From contig CBFDDH010000004.1 of assembly GCA_965603515.1 (NCBI GenBank), positions 11,929 to 75,928 on the forward strand: a stretch of 64,000 nucleotides of DNA, in the 5' to 3' direction. Positions within the stretch are counted from its first letter, which is position 1; each line of letters begins with the position of its first letter. Under the pieces are notes generated by a model. The model worked only from the letters and a program-made list of their open reading frames with translations, had not been told where the DNA came from and did not search any database. Position numbers and translations under genes: made by a program. Source of the stretch: an uncultured bacterium (GTDB taxonomy: Bacteria; Hydrothermota; Tepidihabitantia; SM23-42). Shown here piece by piece: positions 12,951 through 53,821 of this stretch.

Positions 12951-15506
12951 CTATTTCTTTATATAACTCAAGCTCTTATCAAATTTCCAGTCTTTATCAA
13001 AAAAACCTGCTGCTTTTACACCACCCCATCCGTATTTCAATACCGCCTTATCATAAACAAGAAAATCAGGTAAACCGGCACCCGCGTAAAGCGTGGAAAA
13101 CAAACCGATCAATTTCTCTGCCCGTTTTGTGGTTGCTGAATATAATAAGACGAATTTCTCAGGGGCTAGAGGGTTGGAATATATTTCTACCAAACAGAGA
13201 TCCCCTCTTATTGTATCTCTATCAACAATTACTCTACCTTCTTCAATATGAAGAGGTAATCTGTAGCTAATCCACTTGAGGATAGAGTTAGTTACAGAAT
13301 TCCCAAAGACAACAAGGTTATTGGTTTTGATGATCTTTTCCGTGACTTCTGTGTCAGGCAGTACCTCAACAAATCCATTTGCCCGGTACCACCAGGTATA
13401 GGACTGTAATCGCGCCTGATGCAGATTGTTCTCGGTTGATTTTGAATCACCGAGAGTTCCGTAAATAAGAACAAAAGGCTCAAAGTATGCTTTTTTTATA
13501 GGGCCATAACATCCTGCGTTCTTTCCAGAATGAGATCGGGTTGCCCAGAAAAATCCGTCACCATCTCTTTTAAAGGAAAGTTCACACGGTTCTCTATATT
13601 CAAACGTGAGGTGCTGATCATTTATAAAAAGATTGACAATACCGGGTGATATAAAATCGTCATTTAAAATCAGGGTAAAGGTGTTTACATTTGTTTCATT
13701 CACGATGATCTTGCACGTATCGGTTTGCTTCAATAATCCATCATTCTCAAGTTTTTTCTGTGCGACAAGTTCAATTTCAATCAAACCATCGTAATAAATA
13801 CTGTTGAGTTCATCGATCCTCACCCAGTATGCCTTATTTGAATGATCAATATTTGAGGTTTTAAATATCACTTTTTCAGGGTAGGGATTGCGCACCTTGC
13901 TCTTCAGAAAATCCATAAGCTCTTTTGAGTCCACACAGTCAGTACCTGGTGTGGAATCTATATTCCACCAGTGACCTTTACCTTCAACCTCGTTGTATTC
14001 ATAGTTATAGCCAAGATTGGTCAGGTATTTGCAGAACATCCTTGCCTGGATCGGTGGAACATTATCATCTGCACCCCCCTGTAAAAGATATATCGGTAGA
14101 TTGAGCGCGTTTTCCAAGAATAAAAGCGGATTGTCTTGTCGCAATACCATATCGCGATACTTTATCAGATCCGGATGCGCAAAGAGCTCACTTTTCTGAA
14201 GAAACCATGGGACATAGAGTTGAAAGCTCGTCCATCCAGCAGAAGGCGCCATTGCCGCGAAGATATCTGGATGGGTCATGCCGATATGCCAGGCACCATG
14301 ACCACCCATAGAATGTCCAGTAAGATAGATTCGGTTAGTATCAATCTTAAAATTCTTCTTTATCTCTTCTAAAACCTCAAGAAAATCGAGTCTGCCCCAG
14401 TCCTGCCAGTCAAAACCAAACCTGCGGCGATTGGTCGGCGCAACGACAAAAGCCCAATCTTTTTGTGTATACGCTTTCACCTGACCTCTTGCCTTAACAC
14501 CAGCTCCATGACAAGTCATTATGAGAGCATAAGATGTGTCTTCATTATAGTTTTCTGGTGGTAGAATCGCATAGTATTGACATGAATTATCGATTCGAGA
14601 AATAAAGGTCTTAGCATATGCCTCATCTCTGTTTTTCACTTTAATCCAGAAATCTTCTTGTGTAGAAAAAGTGTCAAAGGAAGCCGTTATAGTTATCAAA
14701 ATACTATCCTCTTCTGTTTCTATTTTAGCTTCTGATCCAATGTTTAATGGTATTTTAATTGCTGAAAAGGGCATTATATTGGTGATCGTCTGTGTTTGTA
14801 TTTTAATATTCACACCTGCTATTTTGAGTTCGATATCAGACATATGCTGGTTTGTCGCATTAACGATCGGTATTCCCAACCAGACACTGGCAGATTCACC
14901 CCTTACAAAATCTGGGGCAGTGATATCTTTGGTTATCACCATTAAAGGATCTGGTACTGGGATAATTCTAAATGTAAACTTGTGGTCCCCAAAACCACTG
15001 AGTTTTACTATCACCCTGTTCTTCCCTTTCTTTAGAAGAACCGGGACCTGTAAGAATCCATCGCCATACCGATCACCAGGGAGATTCACGCCATTTAAGA
15101 TAAACGAAGAGACCTTTTTTGCGATAACCAATGCCCGTCTCGTGCTGTCATTAGTAAACTCACCGTAGGCATAAGCGCCGCAAAGAACTCCAGCCGCGCC
15201 ATAATAATCTTGAATAGTATCCCATAAAACATTTTCGTATTCAATCTTAACTTCACCATTATCAGATTCTATTGTTTGCCACGCGACTTCACCATCCTGC
15301 ACGAGAAGACTCGGATATATCGCCTTTTTATCTGGCTCAAAATCCTCAAGAAGTCTAATGTTTTCCTCAACGCCGATGATCCCCTCTCTCATCCCTATTG
15401 AAAAAGGACCCAGGTATTGCCACTGGTGTATTGTAATCGTATCGTTAACACAAGGGATAAAAGAGAACTTACCTACAAAAAGCAGGAAAATAATATAATA
15501 ATTCAT
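12951..15506 (-). CDS. secreted S9-family (prolyl oligopeptidase-like) alpha/beta-hydrolase peptidase with large N-terminal beta domain
   Basis: Signal peptide. C-terminal catalytic region with GHSMGGHGA nucleophile-elbow motif plus downstream Asp/His (LQGGADDNVPP...GHWW). Confidence 0.7.
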   Translation of the reverse strand: MNYYIIFLLFVGKFSFIPCVNDTITIHQWQYLGPFSIGMREGIIGVEENIRLLEDFEPDKKAIYPSLLVQDGEVAWQTIESDNGEVKIEYENVLWDTIQDYYGAAGVLCGAYAYGEFTNDSTRRALVIAKKVSSFILNGVNLPGDRYGDGFLQVPVLLKKGKNRVIVKLSGFGDHKFTFRIIPVPDPLMVITKDITAPDFVRGESASVWLGIPIVNATNQHMSDIELKIAGVNIKIQTQTITNIMPFSAIKIPLNIGSEAKIETEEDSILITITASFDTFSTQEDFWIKVKNRDEAYAKTFISRIDNSCQYYAILPPENYNEDTSYALIMTCHGAGVKARGQVKAYTQKDWAFVVAPTNRRRFGFDWQDWGRLDFLEVLEEIKKNFKIDTNRIYLTGHSMGGHGAWHIGMTHPDIFAAMAPSAGWTSFQLYVPWFLQKSELFAHPDLIKYRDMVLRQDNPLLFLENALNLPIYLLQGGADDNVPPIQARMFCKYLTNLGYNYEYNEVEGKGHWWNIDSTPGTDCVDSKELMDFLKSKVRNPYPEKVIFKTSNIDHSNKAYWVRIDELNSIYYDGLIEIELVAQKKLENDGLLKQTDTCKIIVNETNVNTFTLILNDDFISPGIVNLFINDQHLTFEYREPCELSFKRDGDGFFWATRSHSGKNAGCYGPIKKAYFEPFVLIYGTLGDSKSTENNLHQARLQSYTWWYRANGFVEVLPDTEVTEKIIKTNNLVVFGNSVTNSILKWISYRLPLHIEEGRVIVDRDTIRGDLCLVEIYSNPLAPEKFVLLYSATTKRAEKLIGLFSTLYAGAGLPDFLVYDKAVLKYGWGGVKAAGFFDKDWKFDKSLSYIKK

Positions 15507-15564
15507 ATGACTGTATAATGATTATAATTAGCGCTTGTATCAAGTCAATACTAATAACAGAAAC

Positions 15565-15716
15565 TTGGACACATCTTTATCCCTTGATTTTGAATTCACC
15601 AAATGAATTCCTCTCCTTTGTCCTCTCCTCAGAGAGGAGAGGAAAGTGACCAATTAATACACCCTCTCCCTTTTCAAGGGAGAGGGCAGGGGCGAGGGTT
15701 TCCTAAAATGTCTATT
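15565..15716 (+). repeat. ~150-bp hairpin-containing intergenic repeat element, copy 1 (inverted partner at 52305..52456)
   Basis: ttggacacatctttatcccttgattttgaatt...cctctcctcagagaggagagg...ccctctcccttttcaagggagaggg...gggtttcctaaaatgtcta aligns at ~88% identity with the reverse complement of 52305..52456. Confidence 0.8.
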
Positions 15717-15905
15717 AAACAATCTGTCCAAGTTTCTGTGATAAGGTTGTCCAATAACTATGCTGTCTATTGAAGTAGAGCCTTTAGCCAATGGGGAAAG
15801 ATGAAGTTAAGAGACTACGAACTTCGAGATATCCTCGGTCGTTTGACTATTAAGTCTTGACTTAGATGTATTTTTTTGCTAACATTCTTATAGGTGGAGG
15901 TGAGT

Positions 15906-18683
15906 ATGAGAAAATGCTTTGTAGGACTTTGCTTATCCTTTTGTTTTGTAATGGCGTCGAATACAGGACAAATAAAAGGTAAAGTGATTGATCAAGACGG
16001 CGAAGCTCTAATTGGTGTGAATGTCGTCATTGAAAAAACAGAAATGGGTGCGGCCACTGATTTGGAGGGCGAATTCATCGTGCCTTTTGTGCCCGTGGGT
16101 ATTCATACAATAACCGCGTCATATCTTGGCTATAATACTGTATCGCAGATCAATGTCGTCGTAGTTTCTGGCCAGACAGTTTTGGTTAAATTTACGTTGA
16201 CCACTGCGGTGATTACCATGGAACCAATAGTTGTTAATGCGGAAAAACCGCTGGTCATTAAAACGCAAACCCAAACGCAAAGGGCCATAACTGGTGAGGA
16301 AATTGATATGATGCCGATAAGCGACATCAATGAAATTATCACACTGCAAGCAGGTGTATCAACCAGCGAGAGAGGAATTCATGTCAGGGGCGGCAGGGAT
16401 ACGGAAATCGCCTACTACATTGATGGGATACTCACGAAGTCACCACACTATGGTCATCAGTCCGTGAAGATAAACAAACAGGCAGTTGAAGAAATTGCAA
16501 TAACTACTGGGGGCTTTGATGCAGAATATGGCGAAGCTCTTTCAGGGATCGTCAGTATCGTAACACGTGAAGGTTCTGCAAAACCAAGTGGCAGATTCCG
16601 TTATACAACCGACGAGATATTCGTATCGGATAAGCTAAACTACGGGTATAACCTTTATGAAATAAGTCTCGGTGGTGGCGCACTAAACAAATCCCGCATT
16701 AGGTATTTTATCTCTGGTGAAGCATTAATAACTGATGCATTTGAAGCGGCGAAATACAGGATCTGTTCTGAAAGATTCGACTACAAGTTAGACGGGAAAC
16801 TGTCCTATCGCTTGCCTGGTGCAAAAGGCAAGGTTACTTTTTCTGGATTTTATTCCCGTGAACAGTTTGCACATTATAAAGATATCTGGGGAGACCTCAG
16901 TTTCATATATAATCTTGATAATAATACCTCGGAAACCCTGAAAAACCATCTTGCCAGTGTAACTTTCAATTATATGTTAACAGAAAATACTGTTTTAGAG
17001 TCAAAAATAGGCTATACAAAATCAACGCGATTTTACGCAGTAAGAGATCTCGAAGCTGAGGCAACCGCGGATCGGAAGTGGTATGATGACTACATTTTCA
17101 AAGCCGACCACTTCCCTGAACTGTTAATGGAAACGGAAGATGCTTCCGTGGCAAAAGCTTATCTGGTTGATTCCATGATGAATCATTACGAGGAATGGAG
17201 TAAATATAATGCTGCAAGTTTAAGAAATAACCCGTTTGGCGCAACTGGTTTTTATTATACTGTAGGAGATAATAGGCTCTGGAGGTATTTGTATAGCCGT
17301 GACTATCAGGGAATTTTTTCTATCACAAAGGCTATTGCTAAAGTGCATGAGGTAAAAACCGGGCTCAGTTTGATATCTCAAAATGTGGGTTGGTTTGACA
17401 ATAACCTACCCTGGGCAAGAATCCCTTTCTGGGACATCTATGAAAAAAACCCTCTGAAAATAGCGGCTTATTTGCAGGATAGAATAGATTTTGAAGGCGT
17501 TATTTGTCGAATCGGTCTTCGATTTGACTATTTCGATTCAAAAGCAAGCGGATTGAACAACCCTTCAGACATGAACGATACAACTATGTCTTACTACCCA
17601 GCTAAATGGCGTTTTTCTCCCCGTCTTGGATTTTCAATGCCCATTACCGAGAGATCGAAACTGAGGTTCAATTATGGACATTTCTTCCAGACCCCCACAG
17701 CACACAACCTATATCGTTCAACCAACCCGGTTGTTGTTTGGTTACTGCTCCATAGATATAACTCAGTCCTTGGCAACCCTGATCTTACTGTTGAGAAAAC
17801 AATTGCTTATGAATTAGGTTATGAGAATCAGATATCTGACGCCTTTGCCTTTGGGTTTGTCTCATATTACAAAGATATCTATGACCTCATCCAAACACGC
17901 AGGATACTGTCCCAGCCCTATCCTTATTATCAAGTAATGAATGTCGACTATGGCAATGTGAAAGGCTTTGAATTCACTATTAAAAAAAGACTCCTGGATT
18001 ACTGGCGTTTTGACCTATCCTACACGCTACAATTTGCCAGAGGTACAGCCTCTTATGCATGGGAACACTATTATGATGTTTATGTCGGCGGTCCAGATCC
18101 AAGAACGGGCGAATATGCTTTACCACGAATTGATTTCTGGTTGGCCTTTGATGAACGACATATAGTGAATTCAAGCTTCGGTATTAAACTCCCTGATGAT
18201 TTCTTTCTCAGACCACTGAAGGATTTTTCCACAGATTTCATAATCTCATATCATTCAGGATTCCCTTATACGCCTACAGATTCAAAAGGTAGGGCTCTCG
18301 GTGATCAGAATTCTGCACGTCTGCCAGGATATGTTAATGTCGATGCAAATATTGTAAAGAATATATCGATTATGGGCGTAAAATTCTCTTTGTTTACTCA
18401 GATCTATAATCTGTTTGACACAGAACAAGTTGTTTCAGTCTATTCCACAACTGGCAAACCTGATGATGATGGTGGAGAGCTGTCCATACAGGTCCAGGAT
18501 TTCTCATCAATACCTCTTTCAAGCGCTTACTACACGCCTCAAGCAGACTATGACCACGATGGACTGAATTCGCCTCCAGAATTATGTGGAGAATATATAG
18601 ATGCACGTCGTGTCTTTTATAATAATCCATATAACTGGAAACAAGGATTTAGGATACGGGCAGGTATCGGATTTCAATTCTAG
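15906..18683 (+). CDS. TonB-dependent outer-membrane receptor (SusC/RagA-like) with N-terminal carboxypeptidase-regulatory-like domain
   Basis: Signal peptide. The N-terminal segment up to the plug (IKGKVIDQDGEALIGVNVVIE...) resembles a CarboxypepD_reg domain. Plug/TonB-box region and ~22-strand barrel length; C-terminal ...GIGFQF. GGAGGTG SD before ATG 15906; the track ORF starts at 15894. Confidence 0.8.
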   Translation: MRKCFVGLCLSFCFVMASNTGQIKGKVIDQDGEALIGVNVVIEKTEMGAATDLEGEFIVPFVPVGIHTITASYLGYNTVSQINVVVVSGQTVLVKFTLTTAVITMEPIVVNAEKPLVIKTQTQTQRAITGEEIDMMPISDINEIITLQAGVSTSERGIHVRGGRDTEIAYYIDGILTKSPHYGHQSVKINKQAVEEIAITTGGFDAEYGEALSGIVSIVTREGSAKPSGRFRYTTDEIFVSDKLNYGYNLYEISLGGGALNKSRIRYFISGEALITDAFEAAKYRICSERFDYKLDGKLSYRLPGAKGKVTFSGFYSREQFAHYKDIWGDLSFIYNLDNNTSETLKNHLASVTFNYMLTENTVLESKIGYTKSTRFYAVRDLEAEATADRKWYDDYIFKADHFPELLMETEDASVAKAYLVDSMMNHYEEWSKYNAASLRNNPFGATGFYYTVGDNRLWRYLYSRDYQGIFSITKAIAKVHEVKTGLSLISQNVGWFDNNLPWARIPFWDIYEKNPLKIAAYLQDRIDFEGVICRIGLRFDYFDSKASGLNNPSDMNDTTMSYYPAKWRFSPRLGFSMPITERSKLRFNYGHFFQTPTAHNLYRSTNPVVVWLLLHRYNSVLGNPDLTVEKTIAYELGYENQISDAFAFGFVSYYKDIYDLIQTRRILSQPYPYYQVMNVDYGNVKGFEFTIKKRLLDYWRFDLSYTLQFARGTASYAWEHYYDVYVGGPDPRTGEYALPRIDFWLAFDERHIVNSSFGIKLPDDFFLRPLKDFSTDFIISYHSGFPYTPTDSKGRALGDQNSARLPGYVNVDANIVKNISIMGVKFSLFTQIYNLFDTEQVVSVYSTTGKPDDDGGELSIQVQDFSSIPLSSAYYTPQADYDHDGLNSPPELCGEYIDARRVFYNNPYNWKQGFRIRAGIGFQF

Positions 18684-18833: not shown

Positions 18834-19016
18834 GATATACCTCGAATGAACAACATCGTGTTTTCTCAACGCTTTACTTTATTTGGGAGATTGCTTTCTC
18901 ACTCCGTTTCTCGCAATGACGAATTAGTATTTCAAAAAAGTGGCAAGGAGTCATGTAAAAATCTGTGTGAATCCACTTTTCATCCGCGTAATCTTTTCGC
19001 CCTTGGCGAAAAAAAA

Positions 19017-19133
<117 letters not shown>

Positions 19134-19142
19134 AATGCTCAA

Positions 19143-19201
19143 ACTCCAAGAACCAAAACCCAAGTCCCAATTTGGAGTTTGGAATTTGGGATTTGGAACT
19201 T
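19143..19201. repeat. CCAAGAACCAA / TTTGGAACTTGG palindromic repeat (copy A, in 23S-5S spacer)
   Basis: ctccaagaaccaaaacccaagtcccaatttggagtttggaatttgggatttggaacttg. Left arm is (ccaaga/ccaaaa)-like units, right arm their inverted complement (tttggag/tttggaa). Family members at 27199 and 32944. Confidence 0.7.
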
Positions 19202-19224
19202 GTAATAAGATGGCGGAAGATCAT

Positions 19225-22270
<3,046 letters not shown>

Positions 22271-22484: not shown

Positions 22485-22949
22485 TTAGAAATAAAATCGG
22501 AATCCCAACCCGCCCTCAAAATCAAAATCTGTTTCCGGAATAAAATCAACTACCGGATAAATCTCTAAGAAGACGCCAAAACGATCTATCAAATATTCAA
22601 TCCCACCACCTAATCTTAAACCAATATGAAATTCTGTATCGTCACCAGGATCAGGCTCCTTTTTAACCCGAAACCTGCCACCGATTCCCAAGTAAGGAAC
22701 AATGTTTTCAAGCGCTCGTCCTTCCTCTCCTCGAATAACTCCGGGAAAGAGGAATTGATAATCACCCGTGATATGGAAACCAACATCGCCCAGGAAAGAC
22801 CATCCCGCATTTATCTGTATTGCTGATCTTCTGGCCATGAAATATTTCCCGGTAAATCCTGTCGGGCTGCCGATGATCACACCAATACCATACCCTCCGC
22901 CAAAAAGAACACAGGGTATTAAAAACAAAAGAATGCTATATTTTTTCAT
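22485..22949 (-). CDS. small outer-membrane beta-barrel protein, hypothetical
   Basis: Signal peptide, beta-strand periodicity, terminal ...GLGFRFYF; similar pattern to 9922..10434. Confidence 0.55.
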   Translation of the reverse strand: MKKYSILLFLIPCVLFGGGYGIGVIIGSPTGFTGKYFMARRSAIQINAGWSFLGDVGFHITGDYQFLFPGVIRGEEGRALENIVPYLGIGGRFRVKKEPDPGDDTEFHIGLRLGGGIEYLIDRFGVFLEIYPVVDFIPETDFDFEGGLGFRFYF

Positions 22950-22953
22950 ATCT

Positions 22954-24048
22954 CTACTCCCAACTATCTATTCTTAATGGCATTAATAGGTACATAAGGC
23001 CATCTTTTCCCTTTGGGGTTATCACCGCTGCGGTCGATTGTGAGGTCAGCTCGAAAACCACATCTCTAGAGTCCAGATGCCTTAATGTTTCCAGAACAAA
23101 ATTGGCATTGAACCAAACGCAGACTTTCTCTCCTTCATAGACGCACGGCACATCTTCGTTCGCCTCGCCAATATCAGGTGAAGATGCAGATAGGATAATT
23201 TTGCTTTCACTGAAGTCAAACTTCACATTCTTTATGTGTGGACTAGCCACCAACGACACTCTTTTTAGGGCACCGTCGAGGACTTCTTTCTCAACCGTGC
23301 ACTTCCCTGAAAATTCTTTGGGTATTACGCCTTCGTAGCTTGGATACGGTCCCTCAATCAAGCGCGCGATCACTGTAGTGTCGGGAAATTTAATACCCAT
23401 CATCCGTTCTTCAGTAAATATCTCTAATTTCTCCTCTGGTTTTGTATAGTCTATCAGATCAAAAAGTTTAGTTGCGATTATCAGTTCACCGTCGATTTCC
23501 TTTTTCTCTTTTTTGATCATTGCTAACCTGGCGCCATCAGTAGTAACCATTCTCAGTTCTTTCTTTTTTAGTTGAAGCAAGACCCCGTTCATTGGACGGC
23601 GACTAATATCCTTTGCCACCATGAAAGCCGTCGATTCGACCATTTCCTCAATTTCTCCAACACTTATTTCAAACCACTTTTTTTCAGGGAAAGTTGGTAC
23701 TTCAGGAAACTCCTGCGAATCCAATGAGGGAATGTCAAAACGCGCATTACCTGCAGCAATATGTAGTTTCAGTTCCTTTAATTTAAAAACAACATCGTCA
23801 ACCTGAGTTTCTCTGGTTATTTCGAGCAGTTTCTTACCAGGAATCAAGACTTTACCCTCTTCTTTGACTTCCGCTGGGATAACTTTTTTTATAAAAATAT
23901 CAAGGTCTGTAGCTTGAATCATTAAGGTCTTACCTTTGGTTTCGATAATAATGTTTTGCAAAACTGTATAGGTACTTTTTGGAGGAACAATTTTTACAAT
24001 GTTCGCTAAAGTTTTTGCTAAAACATTTCTCTTAATTTTAAATTCCAT
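22954..24048 (-). CDS. dnaN: DNA polymerase III beta sliding clamp
   Basis: 364 aa with three-domain clamp organisation (MEFKIKRNVLAKTLANIVKIVPPKST...). Directly downstream of dnaA. Confidence 0.93.
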   Translation of the reverse strand: MEFKIKRNVLAKTLANIVKIVPPKSTYTVLQNIIIETKGKTLMIQATDLDIFIKKVIPAEVKEEGKVLIPGKKLLEITRETQVDDVVFKLKELKLHIAAGNARFDIPSLDSQEFPEVPTFPEKKWFEISVGEIEEMVESTAFMVAKDISRRPMNGVLLQLKKKELRMVTTDGARLAMIKKEKKEIDGELIIATKLFDLIDYTKPEEKLEIFTEERMMGIKFPDTTVIARLIEGPYPSYEGVIPKEFSGKCTVEKEVLDGALKRVSLVASPHIKNVKFDFSESKIILSASSPDIGEANEDVPCVYEGEKVCVWFNANFVLETLRHLDSRDVVFELTSQSTAAVITPKGKDGLMYLLMPLRIDSWE

Positions 24049-24239: not shown

Positions 24240-25559
24240 TCAACTACTTATCCGATTAGTTATCCGCTCTAATCTTTGGAGATATTCGATATCAGCTTTC
24301 TTTAGCCCCTCTACTTTTTCAATTGCATGAATTACAGTTGAGTGATCCTTGCCTCCGAAGAACTCGCCGATTTCCGCGAGCGAAAGATTGAGCATTGTCC
24401 GTATTAAGTACATCGATGTTTGTCTGGCTAAAGCAAGTTTCTGGGTTCGTTTCTTGCCCCTTATTTCGGCTTCGCTGAAACCAAGTTCTTCGATCACGTT
24501 TTTCAAAATTATTTGTTTTGTAATTCTCCTGCCTGAACCCAGAAGGTCTTTTAGAACCTCTTCGGCGAGATGTTCATTGACCTCCTGTCCAGAAAGGGAA
24601 GATACCGCAAGCAGTCTTATCAAACAGCCCTCGAGTTCACGAATATTAGATTTTACACGCGAGGCGATATAGTATGCTACATTAGAAGGGATTTTGATGG
24701 TTTCTGACTCGGCTTTCTTCTGCAAAATCGCAATACGCGTCTCCAGATCCGGGGGTTGGAGGTCAACGACAAGACCACCTTGAAAACGCGATGTTAATCG
24801 TTCCTCAAGAGTTAGGATTTCTCTTGGCGGTCTGTCAGAAGTGATTATAACCTGCTTGCCGGCTGAGTAGAGGTGGTTAAAAATATGGAAGATCTCTTCT
24901 TGGAGCCGTTCCTTGCCATATAGGAACTGGATATCGTCGATCAACAAAACATCCTTGGTCCGATACTTTTTCTTGAATGTCATCTGTTGATTTTTCTGAA
25001 TTGCCTCGATCAACTCGGTCATTATGTTCTCAGCCTGGGTGTAAAAAACATTAGTTTTCTTATGCTGCCGATGCACAAAATTTCCGATTGCTTGCATCAA
25101 ATGGGTTTTGCCTAACCCGACACCCCCGTAGAGAAAGAGTGGGTTATATGCTTCTCCCGGTGCTTCTGCGACTGCCAATGCCGCAGCGTGAGCGAATTCA
25201 TTATTCTTGCCGACCACAAAACTCTCAAAAGTATACCTTTCTTGAAGTTTGGTTCCATCCCGGGCAAGAATCAGACGTTTTCTTTTTTTCTTAGGTCGAT
25301 CTCCTTGTTGTTTCAAAGCCTTAAAAGCAAGCCTTAATTTGTTCCCGTTTAGTTGATGGACCGCTTCTTCTAGGATATTGTAATAGTGTTCTTCGATCCA
25401 GTCGATCTGAAACACATTGGGGAATTCGACAAGAAGAACATCCTCTTTCAATTCAACTCCACAACTACCACCAAACCATGTGTTGAAAGACTGCGAGTTG
25501 ATTCTCTCCTGGATATAATCCAGGACATTTTTCCATGTATTATTTGCTTTTTTATCCAT
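24240..25559 (-). CDS. dnaA: chromosomal replication initiator DnaA
   Basis: AAA+ Walker A GGVGLGKTHL, sensor motifs, C-terminal DnaA-box-binding helix-turn-helix (KKRTQKLALARQTSMYLIRTMLNLSLAEIGEFFGGKDHSTVIHA). Stop TGA immediately followed by TAG. Confidence 0.95.
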   Translation of the reverse strand: MDKKANNTWKNVLDYIQERINSQSFNTWFGGSCGVELKEDVLLVEFPNVFQIDWIEEHYYNILEEAVHQLNGNKLRLAFKALKQQGDRPKKKRKRLILARDGTKLQERYTFESFVVGKNNEFAHAAALAVAEAPGEAYNPLFLYGGVGLGKTHLMQAIGNFVHRQHKKTNVFYTQAENIMTELIEAIQKNQQMTFKKKYRTKDVLLIDDIQFLYGKERLQEEIFHIFNHLYSAGKQVIITSDRPPREILTLEERLTSRFQGGLVVDLQPPDLETRIAILQKKAESETIKIPSNVAYYIASRVKSNIRELEGCLIRLLAVSSLSGQEVNEHLAEEVLKDLLGSGRRITKQIILKNVIEELGFSEAEIRGKKRTQKLALARQTSMYLIRTMLNLSLAEIGEFFGGKDHSTVIHAIEKVEGLKKADIEYLQRLERITNRISS

Positions 25560-29040: not shown

Positions 29041-29622
29041 ATGATTATTTTCGGACTCGGTAACCCCGGGTTAATATATCGTGCTACGCGACATAATGCA
29101 GGGGTTGTATTTTTAAACACATTTGCAAAGCAAAAAAAGGTAAGGTTCCGTCAACATCAGGGTTTTCGTAAAGCAAAACTGAGAATCGCCGGTTATAATC
29201 TTACTTTGGTTAAACTTCAATGCTTTATGAACGATTCAGGTGGTGCAGTTGCATATGTTCTTGGTAAGAAGCCGGATGATTTCTTGATTATTTTAGACGA
29301 TATTAATTTGCCTTTAGGAAAACTTAGGTTGCGAAAAAGCGGTAGTGACGGAGGTCATTTAGGCTTACGTTCAATAGTAAACACCCTTGATACTTCAAAC
29401 TTCCCCCGCTTGCGTATCGGTGTAGGCCGCTCTGGTGACGATGTTGCGCGCCATGTTTTGAGTCCTTTTTCGCGCGCCCAAAGAAAGCTCCTGCGCTGCG
29501 TTATTGACGAAGGGATACAAGGTATGGAAACGATGTTCAGAGACGGGTTTGTGAAAGCCCAGAACTTTATAAATGGAATAGATCTGGAAATCAAATCCGA
29601 AGCACGAAATCCTAAACCCTAA
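29041..29622 (+). CDS. pth: peptidyl-tRNA hydrolase
   Basis: MIIFGLGNPG...TRHNAG... catalytic His-containing N-terminus typical of Pth. Confidence 0.93.
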   Translation: MIIFGLGNPGLIYRATRHNAGVVFLNTFAKQKKVRFRQHQGFRKAKLRIAGYNLTLVKLQCFMNDSGGAVAYVLGKKPDDFLIILDDINLPLGKLRLRKSGSDGGHLGLRSIVNTLDTSNFPRLRIGVGRSGDDVARHVLSPFSRAQRKLLRCVIDEGIQGMETMFRDGFVKAQNFINGIDLEIKSEARNPKP

Positions 29623-35123: not shown

Positions 35124-35285
35124 AGTTTTACATGCAATAGTATCATCATTACGATGGGAGTGTATTCTAAAATCACCTCTTTGTCAACCCGCTCGCATCT
35201 TTTCGTTGTAGCGATTCTATTTTTGGTGGAAACTTACCCCGTTGGGCAGCAATCATCCTGCAAGGTTTTGAACTACTCCCTTTTT

Positions 35286-35376
35286 GTTGACAGCCTTTAA
35301 AAAAAGGATATGCTTATCATATAAGACAATAACGAAGTGATGCATATTTGGTTAGTACAGATAAACTTGGGTTATG
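35286..35376 (+). promoter_or_regulatory. conserved promoter + 5' leader module (copy 1) upstream of alpha/beta hydrolase gene
   Basis: TTGACA-N16-TATGCT followed by conserved leader ...tatcatataagacaataacgaagtgatgcatatttggttagtacagataaacttgggtta. Shared with 37632..37757, 38579..38669 and partially 41236..41266. Confidence 0.55.
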
Positions 35377-35402
35377 TGTTATTGGGAAGGAAATAGAATA
35401 AC

Positions 35403-37482: not shown

Positions 37483-37631
37483 ACTGCCTTTCTGCTCGGT
37501 TTAATCGGCTGCTACATGTTGGTTGAGGGGATGTTGCGTTTTGGTGTAACCCTGAAGCTTTCTGATTCTGCACTGCCTTCATTACCAGTTTCGCTGATCT
37601 TCAAGGGTGTCACCGCTATTACAACAAAGAA

Positions 37632-37757
37632 GGAGTGACATCCTTCAAAGAAAGCATATACTTATTATATAGCAATAAAGGAAATCTAATCTATATGATT
37701 AGTCCAATCCCTAGTTGTTATTTTATTAGTACAGATAAACTTAAGTTGGGAGCAAGA
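37632..37757 (+). promoter_or_regulatory. conserved promoter + leader module (copy 2, with internal insertion)
   Basis: gtgacatccttcaaagaaagcatatacttattatatagcaataaag...ttattagtacagataaacttaagttggg. Confidence 0.5.
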
Positions 37758-38397: not shown

Positions 38398-38578
38398 CAA
38401 TTCGCTGGCGCTCATTGCCTGCTCTTGGGGTCAAATCATTTCGACAAGCTCAATACTATAGCTTCAATCTTTACAGGACAGAAAGCATCAGGATACTGAA
38501 TTCTTGGAGGATTAACAATGAGAAAGTATGTTCGATAGTGTCAATGTGAAAATTTAATTCTGTTTATACACATGTTTC

Positions 38579-38669
38579 GTTGACATCCTTTGAGAAAAGT
38601 ATATGCTTATCATATTAGACAAAATGAAGTGATGCCTATTTGGTTAGTACAGATAAACTTAGGTTAGCT
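38579..38669 (+). promoter_or_regulatory. conserved promoter + leader module (copy 3)
   Basis: ttgacatcctttgagaaaagtatatgcttatcatattagacaaaatgaagtgatgcctatttggttagtacagataaacttaggttagctg. Confidence 0.55.
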
Positions 38670-38693
38670 GTATGATAATTGAGGAGTTAGTAG

Positions 38694-51650: not shown

Positions 51651-52061
51651 CTATACATCAAAGATGATCGTTGCTTTGTAAAGATCATTGACCTTGTTTA
51701 CTTTAAGATTATGATAGGTTGCATTTTTTATTTCGGTTTTTATTTTGTGTCTTTTTACATCGAGCGTGTCACCACAGAGGCGCGCCGATAAATTCAGCTT
51801 TTCAATGGAGATATTGTATTCCTGGGGGATAAAACTATGCACCGAGAAATGATAGAGTAGTTCTCGGCACCAATCAATGAAGAGTTCTTCGAGCGATTCA
51901 CTAACGATTTTGATATTGAGTTTTTTTTTCGACAAGAAATGTCCAGAGACCTGAGTTTCGAAAACAGCAATACCAATATTTTTGAAAAGTTCTTCAGTCG
52001 TCTTGGCGTGGACCTCAATACCAAGATCTGCTGTGTGGTCTATGTACTTATAATTCTTCAT
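51651..52061 (-). CDS. archease
   Basis: KYIDHTADLGIEVHA N-terminal signature (DHTAD) of archease. Start set at ATG 52059-52061; the track ORF extends 11 codons further upstream. Confidence 0.75.
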   Translation of the reverse strand: MKNYKYIDHTADLGIEVHAKTTEELFKNIGIAVFETQVSGHFLSKKKLNIKIVSESLEELFIDWCRELLYHFSVHSFIPQEYNISIEKLNLSARLCGDTLDVKRHKIKTEIKNATYHNLKVNKVNDLYKATIIFDV

Positions 52062-52304
52062 ATAGCGTGATGCGAAAGTGTAGCCAGAAATCATACATTG
52101 TCAATGAATCGAACCACTACAATTGAGTTCTCGACAGGCTCGAACAGTAATTTATTTATTCTTCGAGCGAGCAGAGCGCTTGCTCGCTACGCCGTGTGGA
52201 GGAAGTCGAGAAGTTATCATAGAAAAGGATTATCAGATCCGGAATTTACAATCTAAAATGTAGTTATCTCTGCCTGAGATAAACAGGTGATTTATCGGAC
52301 AAAA

Positions 52305-52456
52305 TTAGACATTATAGGAAACCCTCACCCTATTCCTCTCCCTTAAAAAGGGAGAGGGTGTATTAATGTGATTATTTTCCTCTCCTCTCTGAGGAGAGGA
52401 AAAAGGTGAGGAGTTCATTTGATAAATTCAAAATCAAGGGATAAAGATGTGTCCAA
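52305..52456 (-). repeat. ~150-bp hairpin-containing intergenic repeat element, copy 2 (inverted relative to 15565..15716)
   Basis: Reverse complement aligns with 15565..15716 at ~88% identity, including the two internal GC hairpins (cctctcctcagagaggagagg and ccctctccc-tttt-aagggagagg). Confidence 0.8.
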
Positions 52457-52504
52457 ATTTCTAATGATGACATTGACAACATTGCTCTCTTAGTATATAA
52501 TGCT

Positions 52505-53821
52505 GTGATTATGAGCACCCTTACACAAGATAAAGCATCTGCTGATAATTACGCACGGTTGAAACGCATTTGCGAGAAGAAGGACTATATTTTTAATCCT
52601 AATCAGGATTGGATTGCCCAGGTTATCAGGCTCATGACAAACAATCAAAAGGAATTCGGGAAATATTTTTGCCCGTGTAAACAACACTATCCGGTTGATA
52701 CAAAAGCCGATATTGTTTGTCCATGTCCTACGCTCGATCAGGAAGTCGCTGATAATGGATGTTGCCATTGTCGGCTCTTCTGCAAAAAGGATTTCAAACA
52801 AGAGAAGTTTGATATTCTTGAGACAATAACCTGCCCTGGTTGAGCGTCAAAAATGTCGGCTGCGCAGTTAGCGCAGGCACTTGCAATCCTTGACCGTCCA
52901 GCAGACAAGAATCTATTGGTCGGCGTTAATACCGCAGATGATGCTGGAATTTATAAAATCAGCGAGAATTCAGCGATAGTTTACACGATCGATATTCTTA
53001 CTCCGGTCGTGAGAAACCCGTATATCTACGGCCAGGTAGTTGCAGCAAATTCGATTTCAGATATCTATGCGATGGGCGGTGAGCCCAAGCTCGCCTTGAA
53101 TATCATGGGTTTTCCTGGAAATGGCGACCCGGAAACTATGGGCGAAATTCTACGCGGCGGTCAGGACAAAGCAAGAGAAGCTGGAGTTTTAATAATCGGG
53201 GGGCACACTTTTGTCGCCAAGGAAATTAAATACGGTCTTTCAGTGATCGGCTACATTCATCCGGATAAAATAATCACTAATGCTAATGCAAAACCAGATG
53301 ATCTCATTATTCTGACCAAGCCGCTTGGCACCGGGGTGATCGTTCAATCTGTCTTGGCCGGTAAAAAAGAGGGAGTGGATCTTAATCCAGTTCTTAAAGC
53401 AATGACCATGCTCAATCGTGATGCCTCGGTAGCGATGAGAAAAGCCGCTGTTCATGCGGCTACTGACGTTACTGGTTTTGGGTTAGCCGGGCATCTCGTG
53501 GAGATGGCCGAAGCAAGCCGGGTCGGTATTGAAATTAAACTTGCCAAGCTACCGCTACATGAAAAGGTGATCGAGCTTTTGAAACTTGGCATTGAAGATC
53601 CCGGTATTACAATGAACCGCGGTTCTTTTGCTGACCATGTAACAGGTAAGCATGCAGATGATCTGCGGGCAAAATTAATCTTCAGTTCAGAAACATCGGG
53701 CGGGCTGATTATTGTTCTGCCTGAAGAGAGACTTGATATCTTCAAAAAGCATTACGGCGGTCTGGCACCGGTCATTGGACGAGTAACAAGAGAAAACCCA
53801 GGACAGGTAATTGTACAGTAG
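52505..53821 (+). CDS. selD: selenophosphate synthetase (selenide, water dikinase) with in-frame UGA (52841-52843) read as selenocysteine, and N-terminal ferredoxin-thioredoxin-reductase-like Cys-rich domain
   Basis: Track ORFs 52505..52843 and 52853..53821 share one frame and are separated only by the TGA. Read-through gives ...DILETITCPG-U-ASKMSAAQLAQALAIL..., which aligns with E. coli SelD HGAG-C17-GCKISPKVLETIL and puts the UGA at the catalytic Cys/Sec position. The rest is the PurM-like SelD fold (NLLVGVNTADDAG, SDIYAMGG, TDVTGFGLAGH). Hairpin ctgcgc-agtta-gcgcag lies 16 nt after the UGA. The upstream ~110 aa carry CPC-X13-CPC-X12-CHC. Confidence 0.7.
52860..52876 (+). promoter_or_regulatory. 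putative bacterial SECIS hairpin for the selD UGA
   Basis: CUGCGC-AGUUA-GCGCAG: 6-bp GC-rich stem, 5-nt apical loop containing GU, starting 16 nt downstream of UGA. Confidence 0.45.

Follow-up and report, generated by a model that had tools for sequence, protein, structure and literature searches.

REPs and BIMEs are imperfect palindromes of ~20–40 bp with a conserved 5' tetranucleotide, lack TIRs and target-site duplications, and are associated with a Y1 transposase. Pol III promoters mark the integration sites of the Ty3/Ty1 and Dictyostelium TRE retroelements, which insert a short way upstream. Bacterial MITEs measure ~100–500 bp, are derived from or mobilised by IS elements with matching TIRs, and often reside just upstream of genes (PMC10969869; for MITEAba12, PMC6382973). 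Specific targets have been described for some IS elements: IS1397/ISKpn1 and IS110-type elements target REP sequences (PMC1525189), and IS1202-group elements insert 5 bp from XerC/dif sites (PMC10132070). Two inverted repeats mark the window, i.e. the whole stretch of 64 kb of DNA analyzed here. They are, with high confidence, copies of a non-coding MITE family specific to WOR-3/'Candidatus Stahlbacteria', presumably mobilised by an IS4-like element, and targeted upstream of the promoter −35 box. They represent a novel family of MITEs and IS elements, of a kind already known, with a notable preference for insertion close to promoters.

The two repeats, referred to as copy A and copy B, align over 157 columns at 89.2% identity (window ~15559–15714 on the + strand, 52462–52306 on the − strand; MAFFT and blastn), with a 1-nt indel between them. 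The longest identical runs measure 32 and 25 bp. The same inverted pair was recovered by an independent repeat finder as two sets of arms, 15544–15652/52369–52477 (85%) and 15653–15714/52306–52367 (89%), and no other repeat like this pair was detected by that program in the 64-kb window. The 21-nt hairpin CCTCTCCTCAGAGAGGAGAGG and a 32-nt block in the left part occur exactly twice each in the window, and were never found in 100 shuffles. The element includes only short, non-conserved ORFs. Both copies occupy intergenic spacers flanked by divergent genes. Copy A separates an S9 peptidase gene (12951–15506, − strand) from a TonB-dependent receptor gene (15894–18683, + strand); copy B separates an archease gene (51651–52094, − strand) from the FeThRed_B gene, encoding a ferredoxin-thioredoxin-reductase-like protein (FTR; 52505–52843, + strand). 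dnaA (24240–25559), dnaN (22954–24048) and the 23S–5S rRNA genes are located between the copies. According to the homologs of the archease and the peptidase, the window belongs to candidate division WOR-3. The sequence-only reading of this DNA had described an inverted pair of ~150 bp at ~88% identity, containing the same two hairpins in each copy, placed between divergent genes, and bracketing a 36.6-kb segment with dnaA–dnaN and the 23S–5S genes. Alignment, folding, gene coordinates and annotation agree with this description, and a third, outer stem is added to the two hairpins. The repeat itself stands, but the extent of ~150 bp does not hold for copy A, in which the full element measures 181 bp.

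Other features of the window were recorded as well. The 23S and 5S rRNA genes (19016–22262, − strand) have no adjacent 16S gene, and are directly followed by protein-coding ORFs (22485–24048). The match to the 23S model spans 3,042 nt; the gene may carry small insertions, because the match exceeds the 2,925 positions of the model. A 35-nt inverted repeat (28916–28950/29016–29050), with arms 74% complementary and 65 nt apart, occupies the spacer that precedes the ORF at 29041. A block of ~97 bp occurs three times (35282–35379, 37630–37753, 38575–38671) upstream of unrelated genes, whose products are an alpha/beta hydrolase, an unknown protein and a DUF3795 protein. The block is made by a TTGACA promoter-like region, followed by the invariant 17-nt box TTAGTACAGATAAACTT. 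It matches no Rfam family, and looks like a shared operator, or the 5' leader of a small regulon.

The features of the two copies are listed in Table 1. In length and ends, copy A is the same as family members L006, L021, L034, L037 and L047, and is an intact copy. In the outer stem the consensus of the family is CCTCACC/GGTGAGG. Each copy is predicted to fold into two CT/GA hairpins enclosed by the outer stem (z = −6.7 and −5.2 relative to shuffles). Both neighbouring promoters, of the S9 peptidase and of the FeThRed_B genes, read away from the adjoining copy. Copy B would be an old, immobilised copy, which had its right end deleted and other modules fused on. In degenerate form these modules are GATAAATCACCTGTyTAyCTCAGGCAGAGAyrAC and CTTCTCGA..CTCGAAGA..AATTACTGTTCGAGCyTTGTCGAGAAC, and recur in longer composite elements (L020:5759–6042, L026:3112–3194, L027, L007:71–123).

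Table 1. Coordinates (window positions) of the two MITE copies, their modules and the adjoining promoters
Feature	Position	Strand	Remarks
MITE copy A, complete, 181 bp	15558..15738	+	perfect 14-bp TIRs
Copy A left TIR, CAGAAACTTGGACA	15558..15571	+	perfect 14 bp
Copy A right TIR (TGTCCAAGTTTCTG on + strand)	15725..15738	-	perfect 14 bp
Copy A left target-site duplication, TAATAA	15552..15557	.	5/6 match to 15739-15744
Copy A right target-site duplication, TGATAA	15739..15744	.	
Hairpin 1, CCTCTCCTC-aga-GAGGAGAGG	15622..15642	+	
Hairpin 2, CCCTCTCCC-ttttcaa-GGGAGAGGG	15662..15686	+	
Outer stem, CCTCTCC (15610-16) paired with GGCGAGG (15691-97), around both hairpins	15610..15697	+	
S9 peptidase sigma-70-type promoter, TTGACT-16-TATAAT, 11/12 positions	15521..15548	-	TTGAC 9 nt outside copy A left tip
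MITE copy B	52297..52463	-	both hairpins and outer stem intact
Copy B left TIR, TAGAAATTTGGACA	52463-52450	-	
Copy B right TIR, only TGTCC left	52301-52297	-	
Other modules joined to copy B: GATAAATCACCTGTTTATCTCAGGCAGAGATAAC; CTTCTCGA...CTCGAAGA...AATTACTGTTCGAGCCTGTCGAGAAC	52105..52296	-	
FeThRed_B sigma-70-type promoter, TTGACA-17-TATAAT, 12/12 positions	52473..52501	+	-35 starts 9 nt outside copy B left tip

A 19-mer derived from the left arm was scanned against 185,579 species-representative genomes, and matched at 31 loci. Of these, 28 belong to five Candidatus Stahlbacteria/WOR-3 MAGs; CSMAG_2146 accounts for at least 15 and CSMAG_1267 for at least 11. Three further matches, in unrelated bacteria, are chance occurrences. 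Many of the MITE loci are found at contig ends, as expected of repeats which break assemblies. The scan of JGI metagenomes with the TIR pattern yielded 20 more contigs; at least one match (L051), which falls inside a coding region, is probably due to chance.

Elements bounded by TIRs measure 120–556 bp, and the single full-length IS in the set 1,779 bp. The 14-bp TIR, which can also be written AACTTGGACA, is conserved across the family. The canonical element measures about 181 bp. Its interior is made by CT/GA-rich palindromic modules, i.e. the two hairpins and the enclosing stem. In longer relatives (205–556 bp) these modules have changed order, been duplicated or given way to others; the longer forms feature extra or swapped palindromic modules between the stems. 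Perfect, non-palindromic direct repeats of 6–8 bp, such as GTTTGGT, TTCTCTT, CATTAAA, TTGAGTC and ATAATCAT, are found directly outside the TIRs in 16 of the 25 complete elements. The length of the duplication varies from 6 to 8 bp, a range unusual for a single transposase. The duplication flanking copy A is conserved at 5 of 6 positions, that of the orthologous element in L064 at all six (TTATTA/TTATTA). Small size, lack of coding capacity, TIRs, duplications and multiple dispersed copies are all observed. The repeats are assigned to the MITEs because of their TIRs, target-site duplications and dozens of dispersed copies, and because an autonomous IS with matching ends exists.

The sequence-only reading had proposed a search for further copies and for target-site duplications, and both proved to be present. 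Copies in five MAGs dispose of the prospect, raised there, that the two repeats are the only ones and that relatives lack them. The same reading had suggested a miniature inverted-repeat element or REP-like unit. The former part of the suggestion is upheld by TIRs, duplications, dispersal and the matching IS, the latter is contradicted by the DDE partner and by the size of the unit (181 bp).

The candidate autonomous partner is an element of 1,779 bp in contig L049 (positions 194–1972), which has the same TIRs as the MITE and is flanked by the 6-bp duplication ACTCTA. It encodes a protein of 366 aa, which matches DDE_Tnp_1 (PF01609) with 40.2 bits (cutoff 23). A Y-2-R-3-E-6-K motif (YRARWQIETFFKFLK) is visible in the translation. 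The best NCBIfam matches are models of the IS4 family, with NF033590 at the top (80.9, cutoff 160), but the protein remained below the cutoff of every NCBIfam IS4, IS701 and IS1634 model. Since these curated thresholds were failed, the transposase is called IS4-superfamily-like, and has not been given the name of a family. The homologs of the protein are few and unnamed, fall into 19 clusters, and reside mostly on IS-sized contigs. Relatives on longer contigs were found in L058 (78% identity, TIR CAGAAACTTGGACA), L057 (53%, TIR CTGAAACTTGGACA) and L059 (43%, TIR CTGAAACTTAyCCA). IS elements with matching TIRs measure 1.6–1.9 kb. No convincing duplication was noticed in L057, L058 and L059, the three other of the four autonomous copies.

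IS elements with identical TIRs and the same target are known from metagenome contigs L049 and L058. Sequences shared by these elements and the MITE ends correspond only to the TIR and about 7 nt. By tblastn, the transposase is absent from the window and from all fetched loci, the MITE-bearing ones included, except L049 itself; nor did the window or the MITE-bearing MAG loci yield an autonomous IS with these TIRs. An IS4-superfamily DDE transposase would move the MITE in trans; we infer this mode of mobilisation from the identity of the TIRs. The autonomous IS in L049 also includes a small upstream ORF (318–500, MKKVKISKKRRVDKTALKPMEIKVIGYEVLEKRAEKTGTSARIYVPKSWIGKLVRAIRIEK), preceded by its own TTGACA-17-TATAAT promoter. 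The product is presumably similar to a small 'transposon-encoded protein' (DUF2080/AbrB-like) which certain IS elements of archaea and bacteria carry. In L057, a fragment of a DEDD_Tnp_IS110 transposase gene (2139–2690) lies directly upstream of the IS4-like element, which suggests a local pile-up of mobile elements.

The DNA flanking the elements was surveyed by reading outward from every unique TIR tip. The survey includes 73 ends, some of which are orthologous sites in related MAGs (for instance L040/L046, L023/L047, L044/L056), so that independent insertions are somewhat fewer than 73. TTGAC was found at an outward offset of 9–11 nt in 35 of the 73 ends, against a background of 0.67% at random positions of the same DNA, and the offset was 9 or 10 in 33 of these 35. 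A TAnnnT motif follows, after a spacer of 16–18 nt, in 32 of the 35 TTGAC ends, versus about 19% of the background sites with TTGAC at the same offset. Seen by element, TTGAC is present on at least one side in 21 of 25 complete elements, and in all four autonomous copies, whose transposases are as little as 43% identical. Both copies in the window fit the spacing pattern. The motif accompanies 20 of the 35 left ends, compared with about 12 of the 30 right ends, and the bias in orientation is not strict. At ends without TTGAC, CTT[GA] is about five-fold enriched at the same offset, which hints at a weakly symmetric target of the type CAAG-N-[duplication]-N-CTTG. TTGAC belongs to the target DNA, and not to the element, because it is situated farther out than the duplication, and the sequence in between shows no conservation. 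Its enrichment is not an artefact of selection, since the search patterns are internal to the element.

The tip of the transposon lands 9–10 bp upstream of (C)TTGAC(A), the sigma-70 −35 hexamer, at about position −45. The core promoter stays intact, and reads away from the element. The fixed spacing to TTGAC argues for mechanistic targeting. Direct recognition by the transposase itself of CTTGAC, which resembles CTTGGAC found inside its own TIR, is favoured as the presumed mode; selection would then remove insertions beside TTGACs located inside genes. The near-universal −10 box could denote recognition of the whole promoter, or equally purifying selection against insertions at intragenic TTGACs, and the data do not separate recognition of TTGAC from that of promoters bound by RNA polymerase. 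It is about as likely as not that the MITEs, together with the IS4-like clade, are a family of transposons homing on promoters, in which the −35 box is actively recognised by the transpososome as CTTGAC DNA, or through the RNA polymerase bound to the promoter, and insertion takes place at about −45.

Orthologous loci were compared to follow the history of the two insertions. At the copy-B locus, contig L001 of the same species is identical to the window. The strain contig L002 has the element, but about 165 bp of the modules next to it (within 52105..52296) are missing, as they are from L004. In L005 (archease 86% identical) the element is a variant with tandem hairpin-2 units. In L004 (88%) only 92 bp separate the archease and FTR genes, and the promoter and a remnant of the right end of the element are kept. 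L004 had been considered as an empty site, and was rejected as such, because the right-end sequence AATGCCTAATTTTGTCC is retained; the locus features an internal deletion with a 2-bp microhomology. Because of the variants in L002, L004 and L005, copy B is viewed as an old copy which has decayed.

L003 does not differ from the window at the copy-A locus. In L064 (peptidase 90% identical) the ends of the element are the same and the TTATTA duplication is perfect, but the interior differs. In L061 and L065 (86%) a different repeat lies against the same promoter. Among the orthologous loci examined, none proved to be a clean empty site, in which the duplicated sequence would occur only once.

A second MITE-like family, with TIRs of the type ~CAGGnTGACCGAGAATTAGnAGTAGGGCGTTTACGCCCG (also ~CAGGnTGACCGAGAATTAGnAGTAGGG), was identified in L060/L061 (4694–4945), L065, L033 (152), L010, L011, L025 and L030. 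It fills the spacer between the peptidase and TonB-receptor genes in the relatives with 86% identity, and a 10-bp remnant is found in the window at ~15826–15835 (CCTCGGTC on the + strand). The TIR of this second family contains TTGACC, and the main MITE is inserted beside TTGACC in L033. No consistent spacing to TTGAC/−35 boxes was observed for the second family. The promoter-flanking spacers examined are mosaics of small elements, which have been nested, exchanged and eroded. MITEs reshape intergenic regions, and are relevant to the annotation of promoters and to the assembly of WOR-3 genomes, in which contigs break at repeats.

Alternative explanations of the pair were weighed against the MITE reading. 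It had been proposed that the two copies mediate, or mediated, homologous inversion of the 36.6-kb segment carrying dnaA and the rRNA genes. The copies are inverted, 89% identical over 157 bp and share identical runs of 32 and 25 bp, and MITEs are known recombination hotspots (PMC10969869). The proposal is nevertheless very unlikely. Relatives at 86–90% protein identity (L060/L061, L064, L065) keep the peptidase next to the TonB receptor, with MFS, Thi4 and AlaRS genes beyond, and L004 (88%) keeps FTR next to archease, in a region of at least 10 kb of synteny in which MFS, V-ATPase, EF-G and Lgt genes follow as in the window. The same-species contigs L001 and L003 show the window arrangement only, and recombinant junctions were seen in none of the contigs compared. 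The comparison of synteny and orientation in related genomes, suggested along with the inversion, returned the same adjacency at both boundaries, and leaves the inversion unsupported. Matching duplications on both flanks of copy A also argue against it, because a crossover between the copies would separate them. GC skew was uninformative as a test, as it tracks gene orientation at the scale of the window. The copies are opposite in orientation because the two promoters next to which they landed point in opposite directions. The two copies have probably not inverted the 36.6-kb block, and are at best a theoretical, weak recombination substrate (89% identity, longest run 32 bp). The MITE reading accounts for the repeat, and does away with the idea of an inversion displacing the origin.

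Each copy precedes a near-consensus promoter by the same distance, and the similarity detected by the repeat finder appears to begin at the −35 hexamer, as would be the case for a conserved cis-regulatory module (a shared operator or UP-like element) co-regulating the two adjacent promoters. The bases between element and hexamer, however, are not conserved, and derive from the target. The same element, with TIRs and duplications, is found beside dozens of unrelated genes; at orthologous sites it is variably present or rearranged, and the FTR promoter is unchanged in L004, where the element is missing. On these grounds the module, offered as an alternative by the sequence-only reading, is rejected as highly improbable. 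There is, similarly, a very slight probability that the repeats are structured small RNA genes, or REP/BIME-like palindromes acting as RNA or mobilised by a RAYT. The strong predicted three-stem fold (z down to −6.7), and one hairpin which is terminator-like on the minus strand, would fit such a role. The promoters, however, read outward with the element upstream, so that transcription from them does not cross it. Stem mutations are uncompensated, as in L028 (GAGGAAAAG), L011 (CCTTTCC/GCGGAGAGG), L013 (GAGGAGAGA) and in the T/C mismatch of copy A; the stems are nearly invariant, with few changes, and hairpin covariation is absent. A change in the outer stem between copies A and B looked compensatory, and was discarded, since copy A departs from the consensus at two positions and the pair is not restored. 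No Rfam family was matched by the element at the gathering threshold, and the best hits below it are chance similarities to miRNAs and snoRNAs (E 0.03 or higher). Uncompensated changes and lack of Rfam matches give no sign of an RNA function. TIRs and duplications, a unit of 181 bp and an associated DDE enzyme are not features of REP/RAYT systems, and the definition of REP/BIME does not apply. The repeats are better viewed as MITEs.

The choice of the target is the feature of the family most worth specialist follow-up, as about half of the ends, and nearly every insertion, are found 9–10 bp upstream of a TTGAC −35 hexamer to which a proper −10 box belongs. Were the transposase responsible, the family would provide a simple DDE system to study sequence-directed, promoter-proximal integration, and a promoter-homing transposon, if such it is, might be used as a tool for mapping or insulating promoters. 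Insertion at a fixed distance upstream of a −35 hexamer is not described in the 2024 review of prokaryotic MITEs (PMC10969869), nor in the literature searched, in which nothing relevant was found on Stahlbacteria MITEs or −35-targeting IS elements; the search was limited, and is no proof of novelty.

Several known systems share traits with the WOR-3 family. Correia/CREE elements of Neisseria, RUP of S. pneumoniae and MITEAba12 of Acinetobacter are similarly short, non-coding, hairpin-rich, multi-copy and mostly intergenic, and feature TIRs and duplications. The WOR-3 elements have no sequence similarity to any of them, and reside in another phylum. They differ also in the duplication of 6–8 bp, and in the fixed 9–10-bp spacing to the −35 box; the duplication is TA for Correia, and measures 9 bp for MITEAba12. 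The candidate partner is akin to members of the IS4 family, such as IS10, IS50 and IS231, in having the DDE_Tnp_1 domain, the YREK motif, a length of 1.6–1.9 kb and short TIRs starting with CA/CT. It departs from them because it falls below the model cutoffs, goes with duplications of 6–8 bp, shorter than the 9–13 bp of classical IS4 members, and has an asymmetric target adjacent to promoters. IS elements specific for REP or dif sequences are also inserted close to a recurring genomic motif, at a distance which does not vary, are intergenic, and cause little damage. In contrast to IS1397/ISKpn1, IS110-type and IS1202-group elements, the motif of the WOR-3 family is the −35 hexamer, rather than REP, dif or attC, and the transposase belongs to another family. 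Ty3/Ty1 and TRE are eukaryotic retroelements tethered by transcription factors, whereas no sign of a tether by a host protein was seen for the WOR-3 MITE. The likeness to them would be conceptual, and concerns precise integration upstream of promoters, which leaves the gene intact and offers a safe haven to the element. If promoter homing is true, the WOR-3 family would provide a parallel, among bacteria, to Ty3-type elements and their safe-haven integration upstream of promoters.
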